DNA of 53,188 nt from a virus (lineage: Duplodnaviria; Caudoviricetes): positions 1 to 53,188 of IMG/VR virus record IMGVR_UViG_3300032236_000387; one strand, given 5' to 3'. The translations under genes and the position numbers were made by a program. Positions 5,083 to 38,525 of this stretch are shown here, piece by piece. How positions within the stretch are numbered: position 1 is the stretch's first letter; every line of letters begins with the position of its first letter. The notes under the pieces are model-generated. The model ran no database searches. It was not told where the DNA came from and worked only from the letters and a program-made list of their open reading frames with translations.

Positions 5083-8000
5083 ATGAGCGACAAGCACTTG
5101 ATGGGGATCAACGTGACGACCGACCGCAAGGCTGGCCGTCGTTACGCTGATCTGATCGTGGATGGCCACAAGGCGTATGAGTCGCGCAATGGAGATACGC
5201 TTAGACCGTATGTAGGCAAGCGTGTGGCCATTGTCCGGACCGGAGAGGGACCAGCAAAGGCCATTGGTGAAGTGACGGTCGGCGAGCCGATGGTGGTGAA
5301 CCAAAAGCAGTTTAGGGGCATGGAGCATCACCATCTGGTGCCAGAGGGATCGTCGTTTGACATTAAGACGCCGACCAAGCATTTGTACCCGATGCATAAC
5401 CCGGTGCGCTATGAGCAGGAATACGATGTTGGGCACGGGATCATTGCCCGGAAGGTGCATAAAGCAGAAGGCGGATCAGTGAGCGAACCAAAGAAGACCG
5501 TCAAGGCGTACAAACTGTTCCGGGTCCATCCCAAGCATCCCGGCAAACTGTTCCCGCTGTTTGTGGACTCGAACACTCCGGTGGCCATGAACGAGTGGGT
5601 GGCCGCGAAGGAAGGCGAGATGGCCAATGGCAAGGTCAAGTCGAAGCTGGGGCCGCTGGCGTACAGGCCGGGATGGCACGCTGGGGATTTGCCAATTGCC
5701 ACGCACATCGGGGAGAAGTCGCACAAGGATCTGAAGGCACCCGACCGCAGGCCAGCAAACCATGCATGGGCCGAGATCGAGATGCCCGATGATGTGGATT
5801 GGCAGTCGGAAGCGAACAAGCGCGGCGTGAACGCTAAAGGCAAGTTCATTCCGAGTCGGGCGCACATCACCGATCAACTACCTCATGAGGGGCACTATCG
5901 GTACAAGACCAACCCGAACATGACGGGGAACTGGCTCATTGGCGGGGCCATGAAGGTCAACAAGGTGCTGACCGATGACGAGGTCAAGAAGATCAACGAG
6001 CAAGCCGGTGCAAAGGATTTGCCAAGGGCGGCACCGTTTGATGCCAAGCATTTTGGGTTTAGGGATGGCGGCGTAGTGGGGCCAGAAGAGTGGGTGGCCG
6101 AGGAGCACGTCAATCATCATCACATCGTACATAAGGCGGAAGGCGGACTAATGGATACTTCACTGGCGCAGATGCGTATGGCGTTATCGCGCCAGAGCAA
6201 TCCCAAGATGATGGACAGTGTTGGGTTGAATGAAGCTCTGGACATGAAACCTAAGATGTTCATCAATCCCAACTCGAAGACGCAGGGCAATCCTGACGTG
6301 GGTGGGGTTCCAAGTAACGCCAGCCTGCCGATTGGCGGAATTGATGCCAATCCGATGGCTCAAGGCCAACAGATGGTTCCTAAAGCACCGCAGGCGCAAG
6401 CGCAGCCACAAAGTCCGCCGGGTAATCCTGCGCCGATGACGGGATCGCCACCGGATGGTCAACAGGGCGGACCCAAAGGAAATCTATTGGCTCTGACCTC
6501 ACAAGGGCAAGCATTGAATGCGTTGAAGCCAGCGCCAATGGCTGATGGTGGATTAGCCAAGTTCAAAGCCGCGATGATGTTCAAGCGCGATCAGGCAAAA
6601 CACCGGATGTACGCAAAAGGCGGGAAGGTTTACGAAGAGACTGAAAAGCCCAAGCGCATCAAGTTCAACGCAAAAGGTCATGGCGGTGTCAGCGGGATTG
6701 TGGTGCCGCGTCATATGTGGGAAGGAAGCCAGCACGCTGAAGGGATGGAGAAGGTCAACGCGGCAAGGGCTGCGGTTTATGGAGGTGAGAAGCGTTCACC
6801 GTTGGGGATCAATCAAGTGGGTCGTATTCACCGGGATACGCTCAATGATCATTTCAAGAAACCAATTGAGCAGCAGCAGGCCGATGAGCAGGCCGCGTTA
6901 GAACGCTTACGGAAAGCCAAGCATATTGGCCGCGGGGCGAACACGCTGGATGAAAGCGAGAAGCTAGACACGGTCAGGCATGAGCGCGATGCACAGGGCC
7001 GTACCCATGTGGGGTATGCGTCTAAGGGTGTGGCGGGGCATTCGTTATACACGTCAGGACACGGTGACGAGCAAGAGCACCACGTCATCAATACCTGCCC
7101 CGGCCAGACGGTCGGATGCGGCGGTGGTATTGATAAGAGCGGAGTTGTGGATACCAGTAAGGGAACGTGTTTTGCGCCCAATGCGGAGTCGCAGTATGTA
7201 AACGCGGCGGTACGTCGGGCAAGCCATGAGCAGGCCAAGCATGACCCGGCAATGACGCGGGATTGGATTTTGGCGCACACTGGGTCATTGAGGGGTGTGT
7301 CGAACACCGCGGACAAAAAGAATGTCCGGACGTTGTTCAGGCCAAACGTGGTGGACGAAACTGACGTGTCATCGCGTCATGCAATTCGGCATTTGAATGA
7401 GCAACGTAAAGCTGCAGGCAAACCACCGATTATTGCCAACTCGTATGGCAAGACCACGGAACTGCATGACCCGGAGAACGGGTATTACGTTACGCACTCG
7501 AACGTCGGGCCTAAGACCAAACACGGCAAATCAATTGAAGAGAACATTGGGCGAGACAAGCAGCGTGTTCGATCAACGATTCTGGCCGCGGACGCCAGCG
7601 GAAAAAACTTTACAAACGAACAGGGTAACAAGACGCCACCCAAGGGTTCGTACATGGTGACCGATGTGAAGCGTGGATCGCCGTTGTCAAAAGCGATGCA
7701 GGAACACATTACGCACGCCAAGTATTGGTCAACGCCAAAACCCGTAGAAAGCCTCAGTGACGAGGAAAAAGCTGAAGGTGAAGAGAACCATTACAACGGT
7801 CATGGGAAGCCTACAACGCCGGACAAGTCGCACTATGGGCATACGACGCTGAATGGGCAGCGGTACGACTACCAAAAGCAACACGTTTTGCACCCAAGGC
7901 TGGTGCAGGTTGGAAAGAATCCAGATGGTAGTGATCACATGATCCCTACCGATTCACGGTTTAAGGATGAGGATTTCCTTCCGAAAAATCGGTACATGAC

Positions 8001-8391
8001 CAAGAATGGCAAGAAAGCTGGTCATATCTTGATGACTACGCCAACAGAATCAACCAGTAATTTGGCCCATCACACGTCGTTTACGCACCATGTAAACGAT
8101 AATCATATAGAGTATGCCAAAAACCATAACGGGGAGTATGAGATTGATCCCCCAGCACAACAGGAAGCCAGCATGGGCAAAGAGTACGTTGCTCCACAAG
8201 AAGTGAAGATTGCAAAGAGAGTTGTGAAGAAAGCCATGGGTGGATCAATTGAATCCGATGAGGGATTAAATGACGACAATTTCCATGCATTCCCAGAGCG
8301 CAATTTTGCAGCGCAACACCACTTGGCGCATCGTGCGGGGATTCAGGACATCACTGATATGCCCCATGAGCACCTGCACAATAAAGGCTGA
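5083..8391 (+). CDS. Large multidomain (polyvalent-type) protein: ASCH-like domain, uncharacterised domain and GP88/radical-SAM-like domain, separated by xAxGG motifs
   Basis: ASCH motif YADLIVDGHKAYESR; Cys triad TCPGQTVGC...GTCFA with FRPNVVD and NSYGKT; six GG motifs; true start may be ATG 5083. Confidence 0.7.
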   Translation: MSDKHLMGINVTTDRKAGRRYADLIVDGHKAYESRNGDTLRPYVGKRVAIVRTGEGPAKAIGEVTVGEPMVVNQKQFRGMEHHHLVPEGSSFDIKTPTKHLYPMHNPVRYEQEYDVGHGIIARKVHKAEGGSVSEPKKTVKAYKLFRVHPKHPGKLFPLFVDSNTPVAMNEWVAAKEGEMANGKVKSKLGPLAYRPGWHAGDLPIATHIGEKSHKDLKAPDRRPANHAWAEIEMPDDVDWQSEANKRGVNAKGKFIPSRAHITDQLPHEGHYRYKTNPNMTGNWLIGGAMKVNKVLTDDEVKKINEQAGAKDLPRAAPFDAKHFGFRDGGVVGPEEWVAEEHVNHHHIVHKAEGGLMDTSLAQMRMALSRQSNPKMMDSVGLNEALDMKPKMFINPNSKTQGNPDVGGVPSNASLPIGGIDANPMAQGQQMVPKAPQAQAQPQSPPGNPAPMTGSPPDGQQGGPKGNLLALTSQGQALNALKPAPMADGGLAKFKAAMMFKRDQAKHRMYAKGGKVYEETEKPKRIKFNAKGHGGVSGIVVPRHMWEGSQHAEGMEKVNAARAAVYGGEKRSPLGINQVGRIHRDTLNDHFKKPIEQQQADEQAALERLRKAKHIGRGANTLDESEKLDTVRHERDAQGRTHVGYASKGVAGHSLYTSGHGDEQEHHVINTCPGQTVGCGGGIDKSGVVDTSKGTCFAPNAESQYVNAAVRRASHEQAKHDPAMTRDWILAHTGSLRGVSNTADKKNVRTLFRPNVVDETDVSSRHAIRHLNEQRKAAGKPPIIANSYGKTTELHDPENGYYVTHSNVGPKTKHGKSIEENIGRDKQRVRSTILAADASGKNFTNEQGNKTPPKGSYMVTDVKRGSPLSKAMQEHITHAKYWSTPKPVESLSDEEKAEGEENHYNGHGKPTTPDKSHYGHTTLNGQRYDYQKQHVLHPRLVQVGKNPDGSDHMIPTDSRFKDEDFLPKNRYMTKNGKKAGHILMTTPTESTSNLAHHTSFTHHVNDNHIEYAKNHNGEYEIDPPAQQEASMGKEYVAPQEVKIAKRVVKKAMGGSIESDEGLNDDNFHAFPERNFAAQHHLAHRAGIQDITDMPHEHLHNKG

Positions 8392-10823
8392 TGATGGACG
8401 ACATCAATATTGATGAGCAGGAAGACGGGTCGGCAATTGTCGACCTGCCTGAGATGGATGCGGAAGAGCAGCCAGACGGGTCGGCAATTATTGAACTTGA
8501 AGATGGACCGGAATTTAATCCGGACTTTTACGACAACCTAGCGGATTCGATTGATGCAGGCGTTTTATCTACTCTCTGCTTCCGTTACCTCGACCTACTG
8601 GAGAGCGACAAGCAAGCCAGAGAGTTGCGAGACAAGCAGTACGAAGAAGGAATCAAGCGCACCGGGTTGGGCAATGACGCGCCGGGAGGCGCTACGTTCA
8701 TGGGTGCGTCAAAGGTTGTCCACCCTGCCATGGCGGAAGGGTGCGTAGACTTTGCTGCACGGGCAATTAAGGAACTGTTTCCGCCTGATGGTCCGGTCAA
8801 AGCCAAGATTATTGGTAAACAGGATGATTTAAAGACAGCAATTGCTGAACGGAAAGTAGATTTTCTGAATTGGCAAATTACGGAACAAATTGAAGAGTTC
8901 AGGGACGAGCAGGAGCAATTGCTGACACAGCTACCGTTGGGTGGCTCGCAGTACATGAAAGTCTGGTACGACGAAGAAAAAAAGAAACCGTGTGTTGAAT
9001 TTCTTCCAATTGACCGGGTAATTTTGCCGTTTGCGGCTACCAACTTTTACACCGCACAACGCGCTGCGGAAGTTCACGAAATTACGCAGTGGGAGCTGGA
9101 GCGCCGTATTTCGTCGGGGATGTACCGAGACATTAGCTATGTCAAGGCTACAGAAACGATTGAAGAAGGAAAAGTTCAGCAGGCTACCAATAAAATTGAA
9201 GGCAAGAAGTTTGAAGATAACAAGGATGGACTGCGAAAGGTCTATCACATATATACTTGGTTGGAGTTAGACGACGATAAAAAAACTAGAGGTAAGAACG
9301 CGCCATACATTTTGATGATTGACGAACTGGACAACGAAGTTGTTGGTTTGTACCGGAATTGGGAAGAAAGCGATAAGACCATGACCAAGCTTGACTGGGT
9401 TGTGGAATTTAAATTTATTCCGTGGCGGGGTGCATATGCGATTGGACTACCTCATCTTATTGGTGGTCTATCTGCCGCGCTTACTGGCTCTTTGCGTGCT
9501 TTGCTGGACTCAGCTCACATAAACAATGCGGCGACCATGCTCAAGCTCAAAGGAGCGAAGATCAGTGGTTCCTCGCAGCAGATTGATGTCACGCAGATTG
9601 TTGAGATTGAGGGCGCACCGGGTGTGCAAGACATCAGGCAAATTGCTATGCCGATGCCGTTCAACCCTCCCAGCCCGGTTCTGTTTGAGCTTCTAGGGTG
9701 GCTAGACAAGGCTACAAGCAGCGTTGTCACCACGGCTGAAGAGAAGATAGCGGACATTTCTGCAAACGCGCCTGTGGGCACTACGCAGGCTCTGATTGAG
9801 CAGGGATCACAAGTTTACTCGTCGATCCACGCACGATTGCACGCATCGCAGGCAAGGGTGCTAAAGATTCTGTGCCGGTTGAATCGGTGGTACTTTGACG
9901 ATATGCAAAAGTCGGACATTGTGTCTGACTTGGATATTACGCGGGAAGACTTTGCAAAGAACACGGACGTTGAGCCTGTCAGCGATCCGCATATCTTCTC
10001 TGAGACTCAACGGATGGCGCAGAACCAAGCGGTTCTGGCGTTGGCGGATAAGCACCCACAACAGTTCAAGATGAACAATGTGATTGCTCGGGTGCTCAAG
10101 CAGATGAAGATCCCGAACATCAATGAGTTGATGAACGAGGTTCCGGCACCTGAACAGCGCACTAGCGCGGATGAGAACGCGGCGATGCTGATCGGGCAGA
10201 CAGCGTATGCATATATTCAACAGGATCACATCGCACACATTCAAGATCACTTGCAGTTTGCAATGAGTCCGTTCTTGGGCCAGTCACCGTTTGCAGATCC
10301 GGGGTACTTGAACAACCTGATTGAGCATATCAAACAGCACATGACGTTGTGGTATCTCAATCGATCCAATGGATACGTTGAAAAGAACGTGGGCAGGCCG
10401 GTTACAAATTACGAAGATCCAAATTACACGTCAGAGATTGACAAGTTGTACACAATTGTTGGCGGCCATGTGATGTTGGATACGCAACAAGTGTTCAGCC
10501 AGTTTATGCCTAGCTTCCAGAAAATTATTGAAATGAGCCAGAAAAAGAATCAGGCTCCTGATAAGCTGCCGCCAGATGCTCAAGTGGTTAAAGACACCAG
10601 CATGGCTGAGACGCAACGCAAAACGCAGAAAGATCAAGCTGATATTCAGATTGCTCAATCTAAGATTCAAAGCGATATGCAAAAGCACGTTATCGATAAC
10701 CAGACAAAAGTCCAGATCGAAAACGCCAAATTGACGCATGAGACAATACAAACGGTTGCTCAAGCTCAACAACCGGCACCAATGCCACAACCGCCACAAG
10801 GAGAACCAAATGGCAACGTCTGA
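8391..10823 (+). CDS. Portal protein
   Basis: 810 aa; GASKVVHPAMAEGCVDFAARAIKELFPPDGPVK and APVGTTQALIEQG motifs typical of this podovirus portal family; position after TerL. Confidence 0.85.
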   Translation: MMDDINIDEQEDGSAIVDLPEMDAEEQPDGSAIIELEDGPEFNPDFYDNLADSIDAGVLSTLCFRYLDLLESDKQARELRDKQYEEGIKRTGLGNDAPGGATFMGASKVVHPAMAEGCVDFAARAIKELFPPDGPVKAKIIGKQDDLKTAIAERKVDFLNWQITEQIEEFRDEQEQLLTQLPLGGSQYMKVWYDEEKKKPCVEFLPIDRVILPFAATNFYTAQRAAEVHEITQWELERRISSGMYRDISYVKATETIEEGKVQQATNKIEGKKFEDNKDGLRKVYHIYTWLELDDDKKTRGKNAPYILMIDELDNEVVGLYRNWEESDKTMTKLDWVVEFKFIPWRGAYAIGLPHLIGGLSAALTGSLRALLDSAHINNAATMLKLKGAKISGSSQQIDVTQIVEIEGAPGVQDIRQIAMPMPFNPPSPVLFELLGWLDKATSSVVTTAEEKIADISANAPVGTTQALIEQGSQVYSSIHARLHASQARVLKILCRLNRWYFDDMQKSDIVSDLDITREDFAKNTDVEPVSDPHIFSETQRMAQNQAVLALADKHPQQFKMNNVIARVLKQMKIPNINELMNEVPAPEQRTSADENAAMLIGQTAYAYIQQDHIAHIQDHLQFAMSPFLGQSPFADPGYLNNLIEHIKQHMTLWYLNRSNGYVEKNVGRPVTNYEDPNYTSEIDKLYTIVGGHVMLDTQQVFSQFMPSFQKIIEMSQKKNQAPDKLPPDAQVVKDTSMAETQRKTQKDQADIQIAQSKIQSDMQKHVIDNQTKVQIENAKLTHETIQTVAQAQQPAPMPQPPQGEPNGNV

Positions 10824-10956
10824 TCAAGAACAGAAGTCGGTGCTGGTAAAACAGCACAAGCGTCTGGCACAAGGGGAAAAGCTTGATGGAACCAACATGG
10901 GTCCAAAGGGTGAGAAAGCTAAATCAGGAGGTCTATCACACGCCAAGAAAAAATGA
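10810..10956 (+). CDS. Small basic protein (48 aa) carrying a KAKSGGL motif
   Basis: AAGGAG RBS, ATG at 10810. Confidence 0.65.
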   Translation: MATSDQEQKSVLVKQHKRLAQGEKLDGTNMGPKGEKAKSGGLSHAKKK

Positions 10957-11132
10957 TTGAAGCACTGATCCATCGGATCAAAATACGCCAAAACGAGTTG
11001 CAGCTATCGTTAGCTCAAGGCGTTCCCATGAACTGGGAGGCGTATCAACGTATCGTTGGTAACTATCAAGGTCTGCAAGCAGTGCTTGATATTATTGACA
11101 ATATGCTGGAAGAAGAGAAAGAGTTTGATTAA
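10953..11132 (+). CDS. Small helical protein (59 aa, MIEALIHRIK...YQRIVGNYQGL...), below ORF-track cutoff
   Basis: ATGA-coupled, open frame, occupies the usual slot before the GroES-like gene. Confidence 0.7.
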   Translation: MIEALIHRIKIRQNELQLSLAQGVPMNWEAYQRIVGNYQGLQAVLDIIDNMLEEEKEFD

Positions 11133-11185: not shown

Positions 11186-11638
11186 ATGACTGAAAAAGAA
11201 AAGATCCCTACGATTGAGGGCGTACAGCGTACGCCTGATTCCGTTGAATTGTCTTGGGCATTTCCTGAAGTGGGGCCGGGACAGCGTCCGTTCGGAGGGC
11301 GCGTCATCGTTCAGTTACGTCGGATCAAGAAAAAAGTTGGTCGGATTGTGATCGTGGACGAAACCAAAGAGAACGAGAAGTGGAACAACATGATCGGCAA
11401 GATTGTGGCGTTGGGTCCGCTTGCGTTCAAGAACCGGGACACCATGAAACCATGGACTGAAGGGTCATGGGCTGAGATTGGTGACTTTGTTCGGGTTCCA
11501 AGATGGGGTGGTGACCGTTGGGAGCGTGCTGTTCCCGGTGAAGACGGTGAAGATCCTGTTTTGTTTATGACAATCAACGACCATGAACTGATTTCGGCCA
11601 TCACAGATGACCCGTTGTCGTTCAAGGCTTACGTTTAG
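11186..11638 (+). CDS. GroES-like co-chaperonin
   Basis: RPFGGRVIVQ...GKIVALGPLAF...IGDFVRV...INDHELISAI matches the Cpn10 pattern. Confidence 0.85.
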   Translation: MTEKEKIPTIEGVQRTPDSVELSWAFPEVGPGQRPFGGRVIVQLRRIKKKVGRIVIVDETKENEKWNNMIGKIVALGPLAFKNRDTMKPWTEGSWAEIGDFVRVPRWGGDRWERAVPGEDGEDPVLFMTINDHELISAITDDPLSFKAYV

Positions 11639-11647: not shown

Positions 11648-12613
11648 ATGGCTGAAAATACCGAAAAAACTGAAGAATTAGACGTTGTAGAGGCCAAGGA
11701 TGGCTCTGCAGTGGTTGATGTTCCCGAAAGTTTGCTTGGCGATGACGATTCCGATGTCAAATCTAACGGTGATGCTGGTGTTGATGCGGATGCGGATGAT
11801 CCGGGTGATGATGAAGAGTTGCGAGCAGCAAAACGCAACCGTCGTCGAGCCAAAAAAGACTTGGTTCGCAAGACAAACCAAGAGAAAGACGTTCGGTTGG
11901 TTCAATTGCAACGTGAGAATGAAGAATTCAAGCGTCGTCTGAGTCAATTAGAACGCAACACCAAAGCGGAACACGTTGTTAGGATTGAAAAGAACATTGA
12001 GGACGCTCAAGTGCGTCTTGAATACGCCAAGATGAAGCTTTCAGAGGCCACATCAAACAATGATGGTCAGGCCATGGTTGAGGCGCAGACGCTTTTTTCG
12101 ACTGCTCAAGACGAAATCAAGCAACTCAACGGAATGAAGGTTCAAGCCGACCGGGAAGTTAACGCTCCGCAACGTCAAGACAACGATGTTGACCCAAACG
12201 TGCGACGGCACGCTCAACAGTGGATGAAGCGTAATCCTTGGTACACGGCTGGAGGCACTGATCCAGATAGCCGAGTGGCCAAGAAGATGGATGAGCTAAT
12301 GGCTGCTCAAGGTTGGGATCCAACGGATCGTGATTACTGGGATGAGCTTGATAGCCGTTTGCAAAAGGAATTACCTCACCGTTACAATGCAAACGGTGAA
12401 GATGATAACCGTGGTGTTAGACGACCAAGGAATGTTGTGGGAAGTGCGGGACGCGAAGCATCGGCTGCTTACGGTGGATCTAACCGATCCCAGTTTGTTT
12501 TGTCGCCTGAAAGGGTGAAAGCAATGAAAGATGCAGGTGCTTGGGAAAATCCTGAGAGGAAGGCCAGAATGATCAAACAGTTCATGGCCTACGACCGAAC
12601 CAACCGCAATTGA
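11648..12613 (+). CDS. Putative capsid scaffolding protein
   Basis: Acidic N-terminus, long coiled coil, upstream of capsid genes. Confidence 0.7.
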   Translation: MAENTEKTEELDVVEAKDGSAVVDVPESLLGDDDSDVKSNGDAGVDADADDPGDDEELRAAKRNRRRAKKDLVRKTNQEKDVRLVQLQRENEEFKRRLSQLERNTKAEHVVRIEKNIEDAQVRLEYAKMKLSEATSNNDGQAMVEAQTLFSTAQDEIKQLNGMKVQADREVNAPQRQDNDVDPNVRRHAQQWMKRNPWYTAGGTDPDSRVAKKMDELMAAQGWDPTDRDYWDELDSRLQKELPHRYNANGEDDNRGVRRPRNVVGSAGREASAAYGGSNRSQFVLSPERVKAMKDAGAWENPERKARMIKQFMAYDRTNRN

Positions 12614-12630: not shown

Positions 12631-13176
12631 ATGGAATCTCGTCTCAAAAAATCTTTGAACGCTGGTGGCAGACAGGACCGTGAAAACGGGGAGGCAAGTC
12701 ATTCAGCGCCTGAAGAAAAGTTCGCTTCTACACAGGAACGTAAAAAAATGTGGAGTGAGGAGTGGACGCAATCAGCATTGCCAAAACTGCCCAACATGGA
12801 TGGGTGGCACCTTTGCTGGCTTTCAACAACCAACAGCTACGACTCCATTGATAAGAGGATTCGTCTTGGGTACGTTCCCGTTAAATCGGAAGAGTTACCC
12901 GGATATGAGGACTATCGAGTGAAGTCGGGTGAGCACGTTGGATATATCTCATGCAACGAGATGTTGCTGTTCAAAATTCCGATGGAAATTTTCCAAGAGG
13001 TGATGGTTCATATGCATCACGATAAACCTCGTGAAGAAGCAGAGAAGATCGTCGTCCAAATGGAAAATTTGCAAGGGGCAAGGGATAGTAACGGTCGGCG
13101 GTTGGTGAATGTTGAAGGTGAAGGTATTGGCTCTATTGACAAGCAACCAAACAAAATTCCCGTATTTGCGGGATAA
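12631..13176 (+). CDS. Conserved head-module hypothetical protein (181 aa)
   Basis: AAGGA RBS; lies between scaffold and capsid genes. Confidence 0.7.
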   Translation: MESRLKKSLNAGGRQDRENGEASHSAPEEKFASTQERKKMWSEEWTQSALPKLPNMDGWHLCWLSTTNSYDSIDKRIRLGYVPVKSEELPGYEDYRVKSGEHVGYISCNEMLLFKIPMEIFQEVMVHMHHDKPREEAEKIVVQMENLQGARDSNGRRLVNVEGEGIGSIDKQPNKIPVFAG

Positions 13177-13796: not shown

Positions 13797-14711
13797 ATGG
13801 CCGCCCCAATGCGAAGTACAGACTTCCGGTCAATTGTTGAGCCAATTCTCAACGAATGTTTTGATGGAGTCTATGATCAGCGCGCTGATGAATGGAGTCG
13901 AGTTTTCCGTGAGGAAGATGGTATTCCCCGCAACTATCACGAAGAGCCGGTCCTTTACGGATTTGGCGCTGCACCACAACTCCCTGACGGTACGCCTGTT
14001 ACCTATCAGCAGGGTGGTGTGTTGTTCCTTCAGCGTTACCTCTACAAAGTGTACGGGCTTGCCTTTGCACTGACGAAGGTTCTTGTTGAAGACGGCGACC
14101 ACATCCGTATCGGTCAGGTTTATGCTCGTCACTTGGCTCAGTCGCTGGTGGAAACCAAAGAACTGCTGAGTGCGAACATTCTCAATACGGCCTTCAACTC
14201 GTCGTACCCCGGCGGTGACGGTGTGTCGCTGATTAACACGGCGCACCCAATTGTTTCTGGTACGTTCAGCAACCAGTTGGCGACTGCTGCGGTTCTTTCG
14301 CAGACTTCGCTTGAGCAAATGCTCATCCAGATTCGTCAGGCTGTGGACAACAACGGTAAGCGTATTCGTCTGGTTCCACGTCAACTGATCGTGGCACCCG
14401 GCAATATCTTCCAAGCTGAAGTCCTATTGAAGAGCGTGCTGCGTGCCGGTAACGCAAACAACGACATCAACCCGATCAAGTCTATTGGCTTGCTCGACGA
14501 AGGTGCCGCTGTTCTGTCCCGTCTTACGTCGGCGACTGCATGGTGGGTTCAGACTGACGCTCCAGAGGGCTTTAAGCTCCTGATGCGTCGTCGTCTGGAG
14601 AAAACCATGGAAGGCGACTTTGAAACGGACACGATGCGCTACAAGGCTACTGAGCGTTATGCTGTGGGCTTCACTGACCCACGTTGCGCTTACGGTACGC
14701 CCGGAGTGTAA
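13797..14711 (+). CDS. Major capsid protein (HK97 fold, Mu gpT-like family)
   Basis: 304 aa; PRQLIVAP...GDFETDTMRYKATERYAVGFTDPR; strong AGGAGG RBS; followed by a terminator. Confidence 0.88.
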   Translation: MAAPMRSTDFRSIVEPILNECFDGVYDQRADEWSRVFREEDGIPRNYHEEPVLYGFGAAPQLPDGTPVTYQQGGVLFLQRYLYKVYGLAFALTKVLVEDGDHIRIGQVYARHLAQSLVETKELLSANILNTAFNSSYPGGDGVSLINTAHPIVSGTFSNQLATAAVLSQTSLEQMLIQIRQAVDNNGKRIRLVPRQLIVAPGNIFQAEVLLKSVLRAGNANNDINPIKSIGLLDEGAAVLSRLTSATAWWVQTDAPEGFKLLMRRRLEKTMEGDFETDTMRYKATERYAVGFTDPRCAYGTPGV

Positions 14712-16056: not shown

Positions 16057-17772
16057 ATGGCTAATTTTCAACCAATGGTGAAGATGTACACCGATGAGCC
16101 ATCAGTTAGTCTGGTGAAGCTCAAGAAAGGTGGTAAGGTCAAAGCCAAGAAGCATGACGAGCATCACGGTCACCATTCGATGCATCCGGGGCACATGAAA
16201 GGCGCTCACCATGCATTCGAGGCGGAGAAGGGCGCATCGCCCAAAAAACCGTCGCTGCATGAGCGCCATAAAGCAATGAACCCGCAGCTTTACAAAAAAG
16301 GCGGAAAAGTTGCTCACAAGGTTGACGGCGGCATTATGCCAATGGCACCTAGTGGCATGGGCGGCGGGATGACTGGTGTGGGCAATGCTTCGCCGACCAT
16401 GAACCGTGCAATGAGTCCATCGGCAATTGCCAACATGGAACCTGCTGCACGGGCTACTCGGGCAGCGCAAGTTAAGCGTGCTCTGCTGGGCATGAAGAAG
16501 GGTGGTTCTGCAGACCACAAAATGATTGAGAAGTTGGAAAAAGAACTTCACCATCACGAAAGTATGTCTGCGGAAAAGGCCCATCATAAAGCTCATGGCG
16601 GCAAGGTTCACCATATCAGCGGTCATCCAGACGGCACCCATGAGCATCACAAGGCCATGGCCAAGCATTACGCTGAAAAGTGTAAGCATGGCGGTTCGGC
16701 GCATATGCACAAGATGCACGAGCACCACAAGCATCAAGCCAAGATGTGCAAGGGTGGCAGCTATGCTTCGGGTGGCTCGACCAATGAGAAAGGTGCTGGC
16801 GCATCTGGTGAAAAGGTTGATCAGTTCCAGACTCGGACCACGCTTAAAAACAGCGTGAAGCCGTTTGTTTCGCGTGCTGACACCTCGAAGCCTGATCACT
16901 CTCCTGCTCACACTGGCGAGATCCACAAGGGCAATGGCGGCGGTTATAAGCATGGTGGTCGGATGCACCACAAGGCTGATGGCGGTCACATGATTGGCGA
17001 CAAAGTCCCAAGCGTGAAGAACAAGCACTATGCAAAGGGTGGCCGTGCGACCGGCAGCATGATCCCAAGCGGAACGAACGAAAGTGAAACCCGCGGCAAG
17101 ATCAAGTTTGGCGGCACGATTGAGGACAACGAGCATTACTACGAAAACACCGATATGCACACGGCGCAGCCAGACCACTCAAAAGGTGGTACGGGTGGTG
17201 TCAAGATGGGCAACGCCGGTGGATTCAAACGTGGTGGTCGGATGCATCACAAAGCCGATGGCGGAACGATTGACAAGTTTGTCACCCGTAACACCATTGA
17301 AGGTGGTGACTGGGAGAATCGCCCAGCCAACACCACCAAACCCGGCAAGAGCGACACCAAAACCGGCCAAGTGAAGCTTGCTAACGCAGGCGGATATAAG
17401 CACGGTGGCAAAACCTCGAAGCACTATGCTTCGGGCGGTGGCGTGAATGAGATGGGCAACGCTATGAAGATGCCTGCTCGCGTGAAACACGGTCCAGTGG
17501 CCAACACGCTTCAGTCGGGCACTTATGCACGGGGTGGCAAGGTAGATGAAGAGAAACCCAACCTTCGTCTAGTCAAGACCCATACCGGGCCGCATGGTCA
17601 CGTTGCCAAGATCTACAAAGACCGTGATTATGGTGAGCATCGTGTGAGGTTCTACGATCCTGAAGGTAAACACCACCACAAGGCGGATTACCACACGGAT
17701 GATGTGCAGGACGCGCATGATACGGCGATGTATGAGTTGAATCGCGCTACGGACTGGAAGAAAAGCAAGTAA
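16057..17772 (+). CDS. His/Lys/Gly-rich protein with about 16 xxxGG motifs and a C-terminal globular domain
   Basis: GGAGG RBS; LKKGG, YKKGG, MKKGG, YASGG, YKHGG, KADGG, YAKGG, FKRGG, YARGG repeats. Confidence 0.8.
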   Translation: MANFQPMVKMYTDEPSVSLVKLKKGGKVKAKKHDEHHGHHSMHPGHMKGAHHAFEAEKGASPKKPSLHERHKAMNPQLYKKGGKVAHKVDGGIMPMAPSGMGGGMTGVGNASPTMNRAMSPSAIANMEPAARATRAAQVKRALLGMKKGGSADHKMIEKLEKELHHHESMSAEKAHHKAHGGKVHHISGHPDGTHEHHKAMAKHYAEKCKHGGSAHMHKMHEHHKHQAKMCKGGSYASGGSTNEKGAGASGEKVDQFQTRTTLKNSVKPFVSRADTSKPDHSPAHTGEIHKGNGGGYKHGGRMHHKADGGHMIGDKVPSVKNKHYAKGGRATGSMIPSGTNESETRGKIKFGGTIEDNEHYYENTDMHTAQPDHSKGGTGGVKMGNAGGFKRGGRMHHKADGGTIDKFVTRNTIEGGDWENRPANTTKPGKSDTKTGQVKLANAGGYKHGGKTSKHYASGGGVNEMGNAMKMPARVKHGPVANTLQSGTYARGGKVDEEKPNLRLVKTHTGPHGHVAKIYKDRDYGEHRVRFYDPEGKHHHKADYHTDDVQDAHDTAMYELNRATDWKKSK

Positions 17773-20462: not shown

Positions 20463-20978
20463 ATGCCAAGCAAATCTCCAGCCCAGCATCGTTTGATGGA
20501 AGCAGCCGCCCACACAAAGGGCGGTGTTGGTGGTGTTCCTCAATCTGTCGGCAAAGAGTTTGTCCGCGCCGACAAAAACATGAAGGAAGGTGGTCTGTAT
20601 GCCAATATCCATGCAAAGCGTAAAAGAATCGCTGAAGGCTCTGGTGAGCATATGCGTAAAGTGGGGGCAAAAGGAGCGCCAACTGCTGGAGCCTTCAAAG
20701 CAGCAGCAAGAACAGCTAAAGGAAAAGCTGACGGAGGCCCAAGTCTGGCTGTCGAGAGGGGCGAAAAACTCTCAACAGAACGTGGCGCAGGACTTACCGA
20801 AAAAGGACGAGCCAAGTACAACCGGGAAACCGGATCTCACTTGAAAGCTCCGCAGCCACAAGGTGGGTCGCGCAAAGATTCATTTTGCGCGAGAATGTCA
20901 GGGGTGGTGAAGCACTCGAAGGGTGATGCGCCAAGAGCCAAAGCTTCGTTAAAACGCTGGGATTGCCCCGGCTGGTAA
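20463..20978 (+). CDS. Basic tripartite protein ending in a DUF6321-like domain
   Basis: ATG at 20463; GLTEKGRAKYNRETGSHLKAPQPQGGSRKDSFCARMSG...SLKRWDC; segments separated by MKEGG and KADGG. Confidence 0.7.
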   Translation: MPSKSPAQHRLMEAAAHTKGGVGGVPQSVGKEFVRADKNMKEGGLYANIHAKRKRIAEGSGEHMRKVGAKGAPTAGAFKAAARTAKGKADGGPSLAVERGEKLSTERGAGLTEKGRAKYNRETGSHLKAPQPQGGSRKDSFCARMSGVVKHSKGDAPRAKASLKRWDCPGW

Positions 20979-20988
20979 GGAGAGGATT

Positions 20989-21423
20989 GTGAGTGATTTT
21001 TTCAAGGCTTATGATCCAAACCGAATGGCTGAAATTATCAAGTCTCCAAAGGAGAAAAATGTGGATGCTGCTCGTAAGTTGTACGCAAAAGAGTACATGA
21101 AAAAAGGCAAGACGGCGAAAGAGTCAAAAGGAGCCATGGAGCACGCCTACGGTGAAGTAGAAAAAAAACATGGAAAAGAAATGCTTGAAAGGCTCAAGTC
21201 TTACCATGATAAAAATCAATCAGGGGATGATGAATCCAGCTCTTCAAAAGAAAAGCAGGAAATGATCTATCGTCCTGTAAGAAAGAAAAACAAAGAAGAA
21301 GAAGATAAAGAGAAGGCAAAGCCTACTCCTCATGGGATCAAGCCTAACATTGACTGGTACAAGAAAGGCGGGAAGATCAGCACGGCGGAACACGGGAATT
21401 CCAAGCACAAGCACTGCTGGTAA
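20989..21423 (+). CDS. Lys/Glu-rich protein with a C-terminal YKKGGKI motif
   Basis: AAGGAGAGG RBS, GTG start. Confidence 0.7.
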   Translation: MSDFFKAYDPNRMAEIIKSPKEKNVDAARKLYAKEYMKKGKTAKESKGAMEHAYGEVEKKHGKEMLERLKSYHDKNQSGDDESSSSKEKQEMIYRPVRKKNKEEEDKEKAKPTPHGIKPNIDWYKKGGKISTAEHGNSKHKHCW

Positions 21424-26985: not shown

Positions 26986-27459
26986 ATGAAATTGTTTATC
27001 AAAGTTGTTAACGGGCAAACCGTTGACCATCCTGTTTTTGAGGAAAATTTGCTGCAGGCATTCCCAGACGGAATTCCTAGTGAATACGAACCTTTTGAAA
27101 GAATCCAACCAACACAAATTCCAAAGACATATGAAAAATCAATTTGTGAATATGTAAAAAACAACAACGGGGTCTGGAGTGATTCTTGGTCTATTCGAGA
27201 AATGACGGACGAAGAAAAGCAAATCAAAACCAACGAGCTAATTGAAAACGCAGAAAGTTATAAAAGATTTCGGTTGACAGTTGCAAACCGAAACGCTGTT
27301 GTGGCAATGGCCAACTCTGATTTGGCTGCCCTATCCGCTTGGAATTTGTGTATTGAAAAATTAAAAGCATATTCCGTTATATCGGTAGACCCCCTTATTC
27401 CTCCTTTGCCAAAATTACCAATCATGGACGAGTCTGGAAAATGGGTTGAGCCAGAATGA
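26986..27459 (+). CDS. Putative tail fibre assembly chaperone
   Basis: Follows the fibre genes; WSIREMTDEEK motif. Confidence 0.5.
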   Translation: MKLFIKVVNGQTVDHPVFEENLLQAFPDGIPSEYEPFERIQPTQIPKTYEKSICEYVKNNNGVWSDSWSIREMTDEEKQIKTNELIENAESYKRFRLTVANRNAVVAMANSDLAALSAWNLCIEKLKAYSVISVDPLIPPLPKLPIMDESGKWVEPE

Positions 27460-28106
27460 GCGATTCAATTTTTAATATTGAACATTTTGTTTATTTTCCA
27501 TCAAGCATTTCAACCGTTGATGGGTTTGGTTTTTTAGATTTAGTGAGCGCTGTTGCGAATGAAGAGCTTGAAAAAACAAAAATTCAACATCCAAAGTTAG
27601 ACGAAATCTACCCAGTACGCATAACAGGAAACTTGGTTGAAAACGCTCGCTTGCAAGAATTTAATGATTTTGTTGCTACATCCGCTTGGCAAGTCTTGAC
27701 TCATCAAGGCTATGCAACCGAAAACATGGGAATGTTTTTAAGCGAAATATGGGTTCAAGAGCACCACAAGCATTCTTTAATGGAACAACACGTCCATGGC
27801 TCAGGATTGCAAATGATTGGATTTTACTTTTTGAATGCGCCAGAGAATTGTTCTAAAGCTATTTTTCACGACCCGCGTCCCGGTAAGGTTCAAACAAACC
27901 TTCCAGAAAAAGATGTCTCTCAAGCCACTTTTGGTAGCAACATGGTAAATTTTTCTCCAAAACCGGGAATGTTACTGTTGACCAATTCTTGGCTTCCGCA
28001 TTCGTTTACTCGTCATGCATCAGAAGAGCCTTTGTTGTTTGTGCATTTGAACCTTGGGGTTCAATTTGGCATTAGACCATCTACGCAGTCGGCAGAAGTT
28101 ATTTAG
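27456..28106 (+). CDS. TIGR02466/2OG-FeII_Oxy_5-like double-stranded beta-helix oxygenase, paralog A
   Basis: WVQ...HVH...GFYFL...FHDPRP...PKPGMLLLTNSWLPHS. Confidence 0.8.
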   Translation: MSDSIFNIEHFVYFPSSISTVDGFGFLDLVSAVANEELEKTKIQHPKLDEIYPVRITGNLVENARLQEFNDFVATSAWQVLTHQGYATENMGMFLSEIWVQEHHKHSLMEQHVHGSGLQMIGFYFLNAPENCSKAIFHDPRPGKVQTNLPEKDVSQATFGSNMVNFSPKPGMLLLTNSWLPHSFTRHASEEPLLFVHLNLGVQFGIRPSTQSAEVI

Positions 28107-34774: not shown

Positions 34775-35016
34775 TAACGTATGACCCCAGAGGGATGACG
34801 TGGGATCAGTACTGCAAACTGATGGCCGAGTTGTTTGCCGGTAACCAACTGGGGTTTGTCGGCGAGGAAAATTGGCGGCAGTGGGTAGACGGGATGAACG
34901 GGATTGGATACTTCGTTCAGTCTGGAAATCCTGACCATCGTCCGTATGAGAACTGGCAAGACTGGGCGATGGCTCTTGCTGGAATAATGTCAATCCAGCC
35001 AACACTCAATCCATAA
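34771..35016 (+). CDS. Hypothetical tail-module protein (81 aa)
   Basis: ATGA-coupled; Trp-rich. Confidence 0.7.
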   Translation: MITYDPRGMTWDQYCKLMAELFAGNQLGFVGEENWRQWVDGMNGIGYFVQSGNPDHRPYENWQDWAMALAGIMSIQPTLNP

Positions 35017-35017
35017 A

Positions 35018-35389
35018 ATGCAACCATCAGAAATCATCAACGCAGACTCGCAACAGAGAGGCTTGGACCCTAAAGCGGTTCTGATTTCTGTACGGCAGAT
35101 TTTAAAAAACGGTGGGCACTTGCTGCACGCCGGTAACACTGCGTTGTTGCTTCAAAGGATTGGTCCGCAGGTCTTTGCCACTCATCTATTTACGAGTGAT
35201 CAGCCTATAGCTTTATCACGGGCGATGATTCAATTCTTTCACCAAATTTCAGGTCAAGGAATTCATCGTCTTTATGGGAAGGCGGACAATGTTCAAATTA
35301 TTCAACTTTTGCAGAATTTGACCAAAGGGGTGAGTGCAACCATGCATCCATCTGACCGTCCCGAATACAACTGGATGATTCAATTATGA
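35018..35389 (+). CDS. Hypothetical protein, possibly degenerate GNAT-like fold
   Basis: Occupies the slot before ejection genes that often holds an acetyltransferase-like protein. Confidence 0.5.
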   Translation: MQPSEIINADSQQRGLDPKAVLISVRQILKNGGHLLHAGNTALLLQRIGPQVFATHLFTSDQPIALSRAMIQFFHQISGQGIHRLYGKADNVQIIQLLQNLTKGVSATMHPSDRPEYNWMIQL

Positions 35390-37392
35390 CTAGTTATTCG
35401 GGAAGCGCTGGTAGGCAAAACAAAGGCGCAAAGGTTGTCAGTTCGTACAGCGGTGCTGGTCAGATCGTTAATGGTCAGGGCATTCGTGATTATCACGGCG
35501 GCGGAGCAATTGTTCACATTGGTCTGGCTCTGTTGGATGTCGCCACTGGTGGAGCCACGGCGTTTCTTTGTGCTCTTGATGAAGCATCAGATGCTGCGTG
35601 TCTGATTGATGCGGCGGCAAACTCGTTTGAAGCCATTGATAATGTAACTGGTCTTCCTTCTGAAGTAGCAAGCACATTTACTCCCGGCGACTTTATTGCC
35701 AATCCATGTTGTGCTTTTAGTTTTGGATGCGATGCAAGGGCTGGGCTGTCTTGTGCTAGTCAGGTAGGTTCTTCAACGAACGCAGCTGATGGCGCGAGCA
35801 CAATTGGATGTGATGCCAGAGCAGGGATGACTTGCACTGTTAATGGCGGTTTATCTACTTGCACCGTTACTGGCGGTTCTGCAGCTTGCACTGTAAACGG
35901 TGGATTGCCGTCGTCTTGTACAGTGGGTGGTGGGGCTGCGGCTTGCACCTTGTCGGGGGGATCGGTTAATTGCACCCTGTCTGGCGGTGCCGGGAATGAC
36001 ACTTTCAACTGTGACACAGTTGATTCTGGATCTAAATGTGACACGCTAAAAGGCGGATCCGAATCTTGCACGTTGCAGGGCGGCTCTGGAAACGACACTC
36101 TTTGCGCGTGCTGCACTAACTGTTGCTGTGATTGTTGCAACTGTGATTGCTGTAAATGCGATTGCTGTAACTGCGATTGTTGTAACTGTGACTGCTGTAA
36201 ATGCTGCTGTGATTGTTGCAATTGCGACTGCTGCAACTGCGACTGCTGTAACTGTGACTGCTGTAATTGCTGCTGTGATTGTTGTAATTGCGACTGTTGC
36301 AATTGCTGTTGCGATTGCTGTAACTGCGATTGCTGCAATTGTTGTTGTGACTGCTGTAATTGCTGTGACTGTTGCAACTGTGATTGCTGTTGTTGTGATT
36401 GCTGTTGCGACTGCTGCTGTTGCGACTGTTGCTGCTGTGATTGCTGCTGCTCTGATTGCAAATGCAAATCGCACAAGTGCAAGTCCAAAAAATGCAAGAC
36501 CAACTGCAAACCTGCAAAAGCCGGTTCAACGACGACTAATATCAATCAACCCGCACAAACTTTTTTATGCGGAAAGGCAGATGTTTTGACCAATCGCGGC
36601 GGAAATTACAGTGCTGATCAACTTCAAGGATTGAAGCAGATCGGAACTGAGGCTCTTCCAACTGCTCCCAATATGGGAGGTCTTGGTTTTGCGGAAGCAG
36701 GAACGGTAAAAGCAGATGTGACGCAACAACCATCGAAGGTTGAAAGTCTGAACGATTTGACAAAGCTTTCTGATCCGTTTAACGACAAAGCATTTTGCAC
36801 TGCTCAGTTCAATGCTAAATATGTAGAGGCTCCACCAGAGATGTTGCACAACACTGGCGTTGGAAATAAAGCGCCCGGATTGTCGTCATTGAAGCAAATC
36901 CACCAGTCAATTGTTGGTCACGCTGAAGGTGGTCTGCCGCATAAGTATGCAGCGGCAGCACCCAAGGGGCATAAACCAGAGTTTGTGACCGGGTTGACCG
37001 GGTACTACGCTTGTGGTGGCGGCACGGGACAGTCGGATGATATTCCGGCAATGCTGCATGACGGAGATTACGTCATGGATGCTGAGACAGTGTCTGCGCT
37101 TGGTGACGGTTCCAGCAAAGCAGGTATGCACGTTTTGGAAGGTTTCCGTAAACAGATACCTCATAAAGCTGGCGGAGGGTCAAACCCGGTTCCGGCCAAA
37201 ATCGCTGATGGAGAGTATGTGTTCCCGGCTGCGTTTGTCACTTCCCTCGGCGGAGGTAACAATAAGAAGGGTGCAGAAATTCTTGACGGTTTACGAGAAA
37301 AGTTGCGAGCACATAAGCGAGGCGCTCCATTGGATTCAATCCCACCAAAAGCAAAATCCCCGATTGACTACATCAAAAAGGGTGGTAAGTAA
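35386..37392 (+). CDS. Putative internal virion protein with RTX-like repeats, a Cys-rich run and a duplicated DIPAML-x-DG(D/E)YV domain
   Basis: Single 668-aa frame; C-terminal GTGQSDDIPAMLHDGDYV and VPAKIADGEYV. Confidence 0.8.
   Translation: MTSYSGSAGRQNKGAKVVSSYSGAGQIVNGQGIRDYHGGGAIVHIGLALLDVATGGATAFLCALDEASDAACLIDAAANSFEAIDNVTGLPSEVASTFTPGDFIANPCCAFSFGCDARAGLSCASQVGSSTNAADGASTIGCDARAGMTCTVNGGLSTCTVTGGSAACTVNGGLPSSCTVGGGAAACTLSGGSVNCTLSGGAGNDTFNCDTVDSGSKCDTLKGGSESCTLQGGSGNDTLCACCTNCCCDCCNCDCCKCDCCNCDCCNCDCCKCCCDCCNCDCCNCDCCNCDCCNCCCDCCNCDCCNCCCDCCNCDCCNCCCDCCNCCDCCNCDCCCCDCCCDCCCCDCCCCDCCCSDCKCKSHKCKSKKCKTNCKPAKAGSTTTNINQPAQTFLCGKADVLTNRGGNYSADQLQGLKQIGTEALPTAPNMGGLGFAEAGTVKADVTQQPSKVESLNDLTKLSDPFNDKAFCTAQFNAKYVEAPPEMLHNTGVGNKAPGLSSLKQIHQSIVGHAEGGLPHKYAAAAPKGHKPEFVTGLTGYYACGGGTGQSDDIPAMLHDGDYVMDAETVSALGDGSSKAGMHVLEGFRKQIPHKAGGGSNPVPAKIADGEYVFPAAFVTSLGGGNNKKGAEILDGLREKLRAHKRGAPLDSIPPKAKSPIDYIKKGGK
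36103..36507 (+). repeat. Cys-rich low-complexity repeat, mostly (CCNCD)n
   Basis: About 135 codons, roughly two-thirds Cys in the core, mixed TGT/TGC, GAT/GAC, AAT/AAC codons. Confidence 0.95.
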
Positions 37393-37394
37393 AA

Positions 37395-38525
37395 ATGCCT
37401 AATAGTCTTACTCAGTCGTCGCAAACTAAATCGACGTGCGCCCCGCAGTACTACAACGATTACCTGCAAGGGATCGTTCAAAAGGGTCAACAGGCAGAAT
37501 GTAAAGCTCAGTATGTTGGAGCCACGCCTCTCCAACAGAAAGCTTTTACGGACATCTGTAAGACCGCTGGAGCGCAAGCGCCAAATTATGCGACTGCTCA
37601 AGGATATGTTGGGTGCGCTGCAGGAAAAGACATTTCTGGTGCCGCCACTCCATTCCTGACTGCCGCAACCTCGGCAAGTCCATTGTGCGCGGCCAAGCCA
37701 CTAATTTGCCAATCTTCCAATCTAAATTTAGGTGAAGTCGCTGGGCAGTACATGAACCCATTTATCAGATCTGCCGTACAGCAGATGTCGGATATTGGGC
37801 AGCGGAACATTATGCAGAACATTGACCCGGCAGCAATGGCCGGGTTGGTTGGTTCTGGGCAGTTTGGCTCGCAACGCGGTGCCCAAGTTATGGGGCAAGT
37901 TAACGCAAACGCAGAGCAGGATCTGAATAGTCAGATTGCCAATATGCTTTCGTCCGGGTACGGGCAAGCATTACAGGCCGCTGGAACCAAACAAGGTGCT
38001 TTGACCAACCTTGCAAACACCACGGCAACGGCGCAGCAGGCACAAAATGCTGCGGAAAATACTGCGGCTACCACGGCTGCAAATGCTGCTGCAGCGTGCG
38101 CTACGGCGAAGGAACGAGCGGGTCTAGCAGCAGGCACGTTGGCCGGTCAAGCGGCGGCAACCAACATCAATTGCATTAATGCGCTGGCTACGCTTGGCGC
38201 TCAGTGTCAGACCATTAAACAAAACGCCCAGTGTTACGACTTCAACAAGCTTTCAAAAGAAGCTGCGTTGATGCAAGGCGTCAGTGTTCCGACATCAACC
38301 AAGACGACGATGTGTATGTCTCCGTTGTCTACGGCGGCATCTCTGGCATCGATTGCAAAAGGTGTGGCCTGTAGCAAGGGGTTGTCTTGTGCGTTATGTA
38401 AAGCGTGGTGCAAAGTTTCTAGCATTTTTGGATGTCATGCCAGAGGCGGTCTGATTACGGCAGGCGGTGCCGTGGGTTGCCGATCTACTCGTAATCTTGG
38501 CGGTCTACCGCGTGGGGGAAGATAA
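37395..38525 (+). CDS. Putative DNA ejection/internal virion protein (Ala/Gln-rich)
   Basis: YMNPF...GQFGSQRG...SGYGQAL pattern; unusually many Cys. Confidence 0.7.
   Translation: MPNSLTQSSQTKSTCAPQYYNDYLQGIVQKGQQAECKAQYVGATPLQQKAFTDICKTAGAQAPNYATAQGYVGCAAGKDISGAATPFLTAATSASPLCAAKPLICQSSNLNLGEVAGQYMNPFIRSAVQQMSDIGQRNIMQNIDPAAMAGLVGSGQFGSQRGAQVMGQVNANAEQDLNSQIANMLSSGYGQALQAAGTKQGALTNLANTTATAQQAQNAAENTAATTAANAAAACATAKERAGLAAGTLAGQAAATNINCINALATLGAQCQTIKQNAQCYDFNKLSKEAALMQGVSVPTSTKTTMCMSPLSTAASLASIAKGVACSKGLSCALCKAWCKVSSIFGCHARGGLITAGGAVGCRSTRNLGGLPRGGR

Follow-up and report, generated by a model that had tools for sequence, protein, structure and literature searches.

A double-glycine peptide motif marks module ends in head-module accessory proteins of an uncultured podovirus-type phage

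The motif and its carriers in the window

The window analyzed here is a whole phage contig of 53,188 bases (IMG/VR record IMGVR_UViG_3300032236_000387), a complete podovirus-type genome from an uncultured, apparently freshwater clade. Several of its late proteins carry a short linear motif with the consensus [K/Y/F/H/M/L]-[A/K]-x-G-G-x-[V/I/M] that is selected at the protein level. The motif lies in disordered linkers and tails of accessory proteins of the head module, where it marks the ends of modules. Genes and their proteins are named below by their first coordinate; the carriers, with the parts of 5083 that surround its motif sites, are the following.

5083-8391, + strand: multi-domain "polyvalent" protein of 1102 residues, encoded between the large terminase and the portal
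Residues 18-93 of 5083, + strand: ASCH domain
5458-5481, + strand: HKAEGGSV (residues 126-133), in the linker after the ASCH domain, within a segment (110-135) whose predicted local distance difference test (pLDDT) score is below 50
Residues 138-326 of 5083, + strand: phrog_30118 domain
6058-6078, + strand: FRDGGVV (residues 326-332), motif-like, directly after the phrog_30118 domain; relatives read FGFAxGGxV
Residues ~344-500 of 5083, + strand: P/Q-rich disordered module
6130-6153, + strand: HKAEGGLM (residues 350-357)
6538-6558, + strand: MADGGLA (residues 486-492), closing the P/Q-rich module
6610-6630, + strand: YAKGGKV (residues 510-516)
Residues 515-1038 of 5083, + strand: conserved, folded core that matches no known fold
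8230-8250, + strand: KAMGGSI (residues 1050-1056), in the C-terminal disordered tail
11648-12613, + strand: scaffold-like protein whose N-terminus is acidic and which contains a coiled coil; its only site here is degenerate, VKSNGDAGV
16057-17772, + strand: repeat protein of 571 residues
20463-20978, + strand: DUF6321 protein with two motif-like sites, MKEGGLY and KADGGPS
21358-21378, + strand: YKKGGKI, 14 residues from the C-terminus of the 144-residue protein 20989-21423
38436-38456, + strand: HARGGLI, 22 residues from the C-terminus of the 376-residue protein 37395-38525

We scanned the 50 predicted proteins of the window with a strict form of the pattern, [FYHMK][AK]xGGx[VILM]. It matches 14 times, with eight matches in 16057, four in 5083 and one each in 20989 and 37395, and is not found in terminase, portal, capsid or replication proteins of the window. 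Whole-protein shuffles (1000) give a mean of 0.68 strict matches and a maximum of 4, and shuffles within windows of 30 residues (2000) a mean of 0.71, none of them reaching 14, with the caveat that this enrichment rests mostly on two proteins. When 16057 is left out, six strict matches stand against 0.58 expected and none of 2000 local shuffles reaches six. A weight matrix built from the 16057 sites alone likewise finds five matches of at least 12 bits elsewhere (four in 5083, one in 20989), where 0.42 are expected and 300 shuffles never give more than 3. The proteome holds 159 GG dipeptides, 18 of which have Ala or Lys at −2 and Val, Ile, Leu or Met at +2 where about five are expected; 14 of these 18 fall in the two main carriers, 16057 and 5083. 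The codons that encode the motif vary synonymously from copy to copy. It is therefore the peptide that is under selection, and the idea of a DNA repeat or recombination signal was rejected.

A sequence-only reading of the contig had described a motif of this kind as recurring roughly 30 times, about 16 of them in 16057, and under a loose definition there are indeed 33 sites, spread over six proteins and including 18 in 16057-17772. Every string that it quoted is present (6 of 6 in 5083-8391, one in 10810-10956, two in 20463-20978, one in 20989-21423, three in 35386-37392 and one in 37395-38525). Its further claims of absence from portal, capsid, terminase and replication proteins (no strict matches there) and of a location between folded domains (all six sites of 5083 in segments of pLDDT below 50 and, in homologs, sites just after Pfam domains) were borne out, as was the enrichment that it had asked of composition-matched shuffles (14 against 0.7, unmatched in 2000 local ones). 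Its description of the motif as genome-wide and shared by seven late proteins was overstated: the conserved carriers comprise five families, namely 16057, 5083, 37395, the small proteins of 20463-21423 and, in relatives, the scaffold-like protein.

Position and conservation among relatives

In the AlphaFold model of 5083, 543 of the 1102 residues have a pLDDT below 50, and all six motif sites lie in such segments (110-135, 308-455, 457-514 and 1039-1102), which separate the folded parts. Across an alignment of 50 sequences, K351, A352, G354 and G355 of the HKAEGGLM site are near-invariant; G489 and G490 of MADGGLA are invariant and A487 near-invariant; and A1051, G1053 and G1054 of KAMGGSI are invariant. 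The 921 homologs of 5083 have the C-terminal two-thirds in common and vary in their N-terminal domains, among which are ASCH, ART-PolyVal (PF18760), GDSL lipase, GNAT, PcfJ and LPD23 (PF18838). A polyvalent-type gene stands directly upstream of the portal in 12 of the 12 loci that reach that far.

In 120 of these homologs the motif reads x-A-x-G-G-x-V, with about five copies per protein; the family ranges from three to seven, one copy standing at the C-terminal end of each module. The motif coincides with the places where homology breaks: 41.7% of the 8326 internal BLAST alignment ends among the 120 homologs, ends that are not independent of one another, fall within 10 residues of a motif, against 7.8% for random positions. 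In five homologs the motif begins about 10 residues past an ART-PolyVal or GNAT domain and shortly before a GDSL lipase or ASCH domain. One relative has a split 5083-type gene, whose second open reading frame begins exactly after GGxV, at the position of HKAEGGLM. Four other relatives with otherwise different polyvalent-type proteins upstream of the portal share only the P/Q-rich module, bracketed by two motifs. This module is a candidate head-anchoring element of these proteins.

A further terminal element occurs in 13 shorter polyvalent-type relatives on long contigs, which have a conserved C-terminal peptide, THAHHL(E/D/N)IEER(P/K)L. This tail is joined directly after GG(x)V in 12 of the 13, at either of two motif positions, and in the remaining one it occurs with no preceding GG; it may be a second kind of terminal signal. 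Within residues ~350-500 of 5083 itself (6130-6560) there are also conserved pieces of the form ...LAQMRMAL..., ...GGV...LPIGGID... and ...LTSQGQALNA... The core contains many invariant residues, including Cys672, Cys679, Cys696 and several His. Searches with 5083 returned no sequence match in the PDB at E ≤ 1, no Foldseek match of the model to the PDB (best E 0.27) and, in a wide VIA structure search, a best Z of 5.1 to a STAS domain (root-mean-square deviation (rmsd) 3.8 Å over 107 residues) that is not meaningful; an ESM Atlas search with the core gave no usable match.

The second main carrier, 16057, is a basic protein with an isoelectric point (pI) of 9.8, containing 58 His, 93 Lys and Arg and 80 Gly among its 571 residues and 18 motif-like GG sites, eight of them strict. 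AlphaFold2 with alignments assigns a pLDDT below 50 to 356 of the 571 residues, covering the motif-rich stretches, and the parts that it predicts as structured are 121-231, which is helical, and 503-568, a folded C-terminal domain (phrog_7884). A structured repeat such as a beta-roll or solenoid is thus not supported, the motif regions being predicted disordered. Fold searches with the model placed the C-terminal domain closest to 6d7k_H (Z 7.8; rmsd 3.4 Å over 65 residues) and matched helical hairpins to ribosomal protein L29; no function is drawn from these matches.

At least 3027 homologs of 16057 are present in metagenomes (8000 candidates scored), with about 21 GG sites each and a site logo of [G/K/H]-[Y/K/F]-[K/A]-x-G-G-x-[V/A/I]. 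When 54 of these homologs are aligned, column identity averages 36%; eleven GG sites are invariant, and conservation extends to the Tyr/Phe, Lys/Ala and Val on either side. The Val or Ile at +2 is conserved as strongly as the residues before GG, and His is frequent at −4 and +4. Sites can be as little as 5-10 residues apart, and 113 of 120 homologs have a GG within their last 10 residues.

To compare gene families, + strand open reading frames of 80 related IMG/VR loci were scanned with x[AK]xGGx[VILM] and assigned by similarity to the window genes, expected counts being taken from shuffles.

16057 family: 610 observed, 31 expected (80 orthologs)
5083 family: 83 observed, 6.6 expected (33 orthologs)
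Scaffold-like family: 19 observed, 0.6 expected (51 orthologs)
DUF6321 (20463) family: 29 observed, 5.6 expected (86 orthologs)
20989 family: 5 observed, 0 expected (9 orthologs)
Portal family: 3 observed, 3.8 expected (46 orthologs)
Capsid family: 0 observed, 4.4 expected (73 orthologs)
GroES-like family: 0 observed, 1.6 expected (48 orthologs)
12631 family: 0 observed, 1.5 expected (54 orthologs)
Adaptor 21432 family: 0 observed, 2.9 expected (59 orthologs)

The smaller carriers tend to hold the motif singly and near an end. Among the scaffold-like orthologs, 19 of 51 have a single motif (for example, KAEGGSV) near residue 43 of the acidic N-terminal tail. DUF6321 relatives show K[KA]xGGG[LV] at the same two places as the window protein, often close to the C-terminus, and [WYP]YKKGGK[IV] is found in all five motif-bearing orthologs listed for 20989, of nine found. 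Another 80 loci served to examine the family of 37395, whose gene sits in the presumed ejection-protein block. Of its 38 distinct orthologs, 37 carry the strict motif within the final 45 residues; the other 14,481 residues contain six matches. Matches outside the two big families, 105 in all, cluster toward the C-terminus: 30% end no more than 15 residues from it, where 11% would be expected, and 45% no more than 25, where 17% would be; near the N-terminus the figures are 0% within 15 residues and 1% within 25. Together, this C-terminal bias, the homology breakpoints and the domain borders place the motif at the C-terminal end of a module or of a protein.

Caulobacter phage RW and Pelagibacter phage HTVC023P retain the terminase-portal-GroES-scaffold-capsid module and lack both 16057 and the polyvalent genes. 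They have almost no motif, HTVC023P being without any motif-rich protein. The head module thus persists without 16057, the polyvalent genes or the motif, which argues that the carriers are accessory cargo and not parts of the shell.

Genome context, neighbouring features and strings set aside

The remaining genes to which the text refers are these.

2907-3389, + strand: small terminase, Sf6-type
3441-4871, + strand: large terminase
8391-10823, + strand: portal
11186-11638, + strand: GroES-like protein, directly 3' of the portal gene and conserved in RW and HTVC023P
Starts at 12631 and 13192, + strand: two small proteins
13797-14711, + strand: capsid protein of 304 residues, HK97-type
Between the capsid and 16057 genes, + strand: Gly/Thr-rich protein of 415 residues
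30305-30949, + strand: SU10-type adaptor, after further virion proteins and followed by lysis genes
35386-37392, + strand: protein of 668 residues, containing a Cys-rich repeat and, at its C-terminus, a tape-measure-like module, [FY]YAxGxGTGQSDxIPAxL
35386-41325, + strand: presumed ejection-protein block

The closest GenBank record, MW202545.1 (an uncultured genome from a spring), has a capsid protein 95% identical to that of the window. Caulobacter phages RW, GB2A, RLK and KcrB come next in GenBank, at 79%, and Pelagibacter phage HTVC023P and Roseobacter phages are more distant. The match of the GroES-like protein to Pfam Cpn10 is weak (E 0.0032, below the cut-off), as is that to phrog_3188 (E 1.2e-4). 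In GroES the mobile loop has GG followed by hydrophobic residues; we judge mimicry of this loop by the motif unlikely, as only one hydrophobic residue follows GG here. Two genes encode 2OG-Fe(II) oxygenases (PF13759), one among tail-fibre genes (27456-28106) and one among early genes (49869-50540).

The acidic tail of the scaffold-like protein contains a second conserved short element, E-x-x-DGSAVV, at residues 15-25 (11690-11725), in which E15, D18, G19 and S20 are invariant in 43 orthologs. Many C-terminal tags of relatives end in Cys or Cys-Trp (...GGKVKSC, ...GGCVW, ...RGGSMRKC), and window protein 20989 ends in ...KHKHCW (21400-21423). Together with the Cys-rich proteins 35386 and 37395, these endings hint at disulfide or metal links among internal proteins.

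Three of the strings counted in the sequence-only reading were excluded from the motif. KAKSGGL, in a 48-residue open reading frame at 10810-10956 (+ strand), is off-pattern, its +2 residue being Ser. The C-terminal IKKGGK of 35386 was excluded since GG occurs in the last 12 residues of 0 of 67 distinct orthologs, and YACGGGT of the same protein since it is part of a longer, tape-measure-like module in which GG varies. This module, G.GT(G/S).SD.IPA.L(S/H).G(E/D).V, occupies 36880-37392 and is shared by 35386, the tape-measure proteins of Nitrincola phage 1M3-16 and Arthrobacter phage Faja, and CRP-212 gp38, a giant head-module protein of a Roseobacter phage; no Pfam model covers it. Residues ~240-355 of 35386 (36100-36460) form an extreme Cys/Asp/Asn repeat (CCNCDCC...) encoded by imperfect tandem repeats of 15-66 nucleotides. 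In the family, 19 of 64 distinct orthologs have at least 20 Cys within a window of 60 residues, with up to 148 Cys per protein. The repeat may bind metal or be rich in disulfides within what is presumed to be an ejection protein.

Readings of the motif and known systems

What emerges from these comparisons is a short portable peptide carried by otherwise unrelated cargo, either at a terminus or within a disordered linker, as would be expected of a tag. We tentatively favor a docking or head-incorporation signal over a cleavage site, at somewhat less than even confidence, on the strength of the tag-like C-terminal position, the multivalency of 16057, the presence of the motif on a scaffold-like protein, its symmetric conservation around GG and the lack of a protease. 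The motif would then be a portable docking signal in which Gly-Gly makes a small turn and the flanking Ala/Lys and Val/Ile pack together. It would bind a putative receptor, either a repeated site inside the assembling procapsid or the multivalent 16057 hub, and accessory or effector domains would thereby be incorporated into the head and later be ejected with the DNA. As the motif ends each module, it could also serve as a joint for the exchange of modules between phages. In its fullest and more doubtful form, this proposal makes x-A/K-x-G-G-x-V an "address label" by which any effector domain could be loaded into the head and co-injected, with 16057 and its roughly 20 copies acting as a hub or internal matrix and the same label as the swap joint.

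Several points weigh against a docking signal. The receptor and its binding are putative, the carriers are placed in the virion from gene position, and the only GenBank relative that has these genes is itself an uncultured genome. The pattern, with a small residue or Lys at P4 and Gly-Gly at P2-P1, shares the form of Gly-Gly viral protease sites, and a split gene starting right after GGxV would be expected from cleavage as well. A protease of unknown fold, or one of the host, may still act here; the 5083 core has invariant Cys and His and no known fold. A similar string, F-A-x-G-G-x-V, stands at the start of a C-terminal module in tape-measure proteins of siphophages, and these proteins sit in tails and not in heads, so that a strictly capsid-specific role leaves some occurrences unexplained. 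Finally, polyvalent-type proteins of other lineages make no use of the motif (CRP-212 gp38 of a Roseobacter phage has one match against 0.37 expected, and Caulobacter phage Jess A has none), which indicates that the motif is a feature of this clade. A complex prediction with the capsid protein, the scaffold-like protein and residues 60-100 of 16057 returned "no answer" with a score of 0.00 and is evidence in neither direction.

Maturation cleavage, a serious rival although we consider it unlikely, would have a phage protease with an unrecognized fold (for example, the 5083 core) or a host protease cut at or just after Gly-Gly. Such cleavage would free the polyvalent cargo domains and chop basic 16057 into small DNA-condensing peptides; the adenovirus protease cuts core-protein precursors in a comparable manner. 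The delimitation of every module by the motif is consistent with this, as are the exact start of the split relative's downstream gene, the pI of 16057 and the three invariant Cys and several His of a core of no known fold. An invariant GG with a preferred residue two positions before it is also the form of Gly-Gly protease sites, although that residue is here Ala or Lys and not Met, Ile or Leu. As the sequence-only reading had noted of canonical prohead proteases, no enzyme for such a role was recognized: hmmscan against Pfam (E ≤ 0.01) found among all 50 predicted proteins no peptidase family, and thus neither a prohead protease nor a clan-CE cysteine protease of the adenain/pS273R type, nor a C39 peptidase or ABC exporter. 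Among 30 late proteins searched against PHROGs, "protease" came up only through capsid-protease fusion families hit by the capsid protein, with no prohead protease family, and Foldseek and VIA searches showed no protease-like fold in the 5083 core.

The arrangement of the sites also speaks against cleavage. Many lie only 1-20 residues from natural C-termini, and at the many that are 1-13 residues away a cut would take off hardly anything; those of 16057 can follow one another at 5-10 residues. The conserved Val/Ile at +2 would be easier to reconcile with a turn or hairpin than with a protease substrate in extended form. P22/T7-type assembly uses a small capsid protein and a separate scaffold to build protease-free heads, and the small capsid protein and separate scaffold-like gene of the window probably represent the same layout. 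Tape-measure cleavage was considered as a precedent and rejected, T5 pb2 being cut after R1127 and not at GG (PMC10038345).

A passive joint, in which the motif is merely a favored flexible hinge that ends a module and has no dedicated partner or enzyme, also seems improbable to us. It would be kept to allow independent folding of domains, and their unfolding during passage through the tail, and to provide shared similarity for module swapping. Its occurrence in disordered linkers, its coincidence with homology breakpoints and the joining of different cores and tails right at GG(x)V would all follow. A plain hinge, however, needs no flanking Ala/Lys, Val/Ile and aromatic/Lys positions, and it leaves unexplained the 11 invariant sites in disordered 16057, the roughly 20 copies in that one protein and the single C-terminal copies on small one-domain proteins. 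The variation of synonymous codons, moreover, makes homology at the DNA level weak.

Very unlikely, in our estimate, is a sticker for nucleic acid, metal or self-association, composed of Lys/Arg-Gly-Gly boxes with Tyr, Phe and His. By this account 16057 would be a condensate-forming, or DNA- or metal-binding, head filler into which the other carriers partition. The basic character of 16057 and its richness in His, Lys, Arg and Gly would suit such a role, as would the His common at −4 and +4, the many tags that end in Cys and the extremely Cys-rich neighbouring 35386 family. Charge is not what the copies share, since those of 5083 and of the scaffold-like protein (KAEGGSV) are neutral or acidic. 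Chance, or a low-complexity artefact of Gly-rich late proteins, is excluded as an explanation of the motif: late proteins are richer in Gly than early ones and some of the listed instances are not conserved, but no composition-preserving local shuffle reaches the observed count, two far Gly-richer proteins (25697 and 22884) have at most one match each, and site positions are conserved across thousands of homologs.

One conserved peptide thus marks the accessory and effector modules of a large environmental phage family, with at least 3027 and 921 homologs of its two main carriers. To our knowledge, how tailed phages select the proteins that are carried in the head and co-injected is known for only a few model phages. 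As a loading tag, the motif would provide a testable rule for cargo selection and a handle for packaging chosen or foreign proteins into capsids, and would be the phage equivalent of the peptides that load encapsulins; as a cleavage site, it would imply an unrecognized protease and polyprotein-style processing of phage effectors. Either way, the module borders of these polyvalent proteins can be read directly from sequence. The appeal of the motif lies in its simplicity, its very wide spread among environmental phages and its direct testability. We found no description of it in text searches of the published literature.

The sequence-only reading had offered a cleavage site or a docking tag, with adenovirus, African swine fever virus (ASFV) and C39 leaders as analogies. 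The anatomy on which this choice rests recurs in thousands of relatives, and of the two proposed functions the evidence leans toward the tag; of the analogies, the likeness of form stands and the defining enzymes were not found. The adenovirus protease and pS273R of ASFV recognize sites of the form (M/I/L)-x-G-G-x or G-G-x. The motif resembles these in its Gly-Gly core and preferred upstream residue and in its occurrence in what would be internal virion precursors, including basic, DNA-associated ones; it differs in the Ala/Lys at P4, the conserved hydrophobic residue at +2, the many sites at the very C-terminus and the absence of a detected cysteine protease of this type. C39 leaders are N-terminal, comprise about 15-30 residues ending in GG and function with a C39 peptidase/ABC exporter, families not found here, and none of the 105 motif matches outside the two big families lies within 15 residues of an N-terminus.

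Closer in principle are peptides that direct proteins into shells. The T4 capsid targeting sequence, which brings internal proteins into the head, is N-terminal and removed by the prohead protease, whereas the motif is not N-terminal and no prohead protease family was found. Encapsulin cargo-loading peptides are C-terminal, contain Gly and follow a disordered linker. Like both, the motif is a short portable peptide on otherwise unrelated proteins, here alongside an HK97-type shell; unlike the encapsulin peptides, it has a different consensus, occurs in multiple copies and also internally, and its receptor is putative.

With respect to domain exchange, polymorphic toxins have VENN in CdiA and DPxGL in Rhs at the borders of exchanged variable domains. 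The motif is likewise a short conserved peptide at borders where variable domains swap, but it has another sequence and belongs to other systems, with several borders per protein and with copies in non-modular proteins. The C-terminal module of siphophage tape-measure proteins (Nitrincola phage 1M3-16 and Arthrobacter phage Faja) is also opened by similar strings, "FATGGYV" and "AGGGAV," ahead of ...G.GT.TSD.IPA.LS.GE.V; unlike the tag of the window, that module is longer, its GG is not conserved in the 35386 family and it belongs to tail or ejection proteins rather than to head cargo.

The 5083 proteins themselves fall in with the polyvalent proteins, strings of effector domains in phages and conjugative elements (Iyer, Burroughs, Anand, de Souza and Aravind, 2017; PMC5512222). 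Like these, the 5083 family strings together unrelated effector-type domains, including polyvalent-specific ones, and is encoded among virion genes. A shared delimiting peptide is not described in the main text of that paper, where "glycine" and "linker" occur 0 times, and the processing proposed there is by built-in metallopeptidase domains, none of which were found in the window.

By analogy, then, the principle has precedents in the T4 targeting sequence, the encapsulin peptides, Gly-Gly protease sites and the demarcation motifs of toxins.

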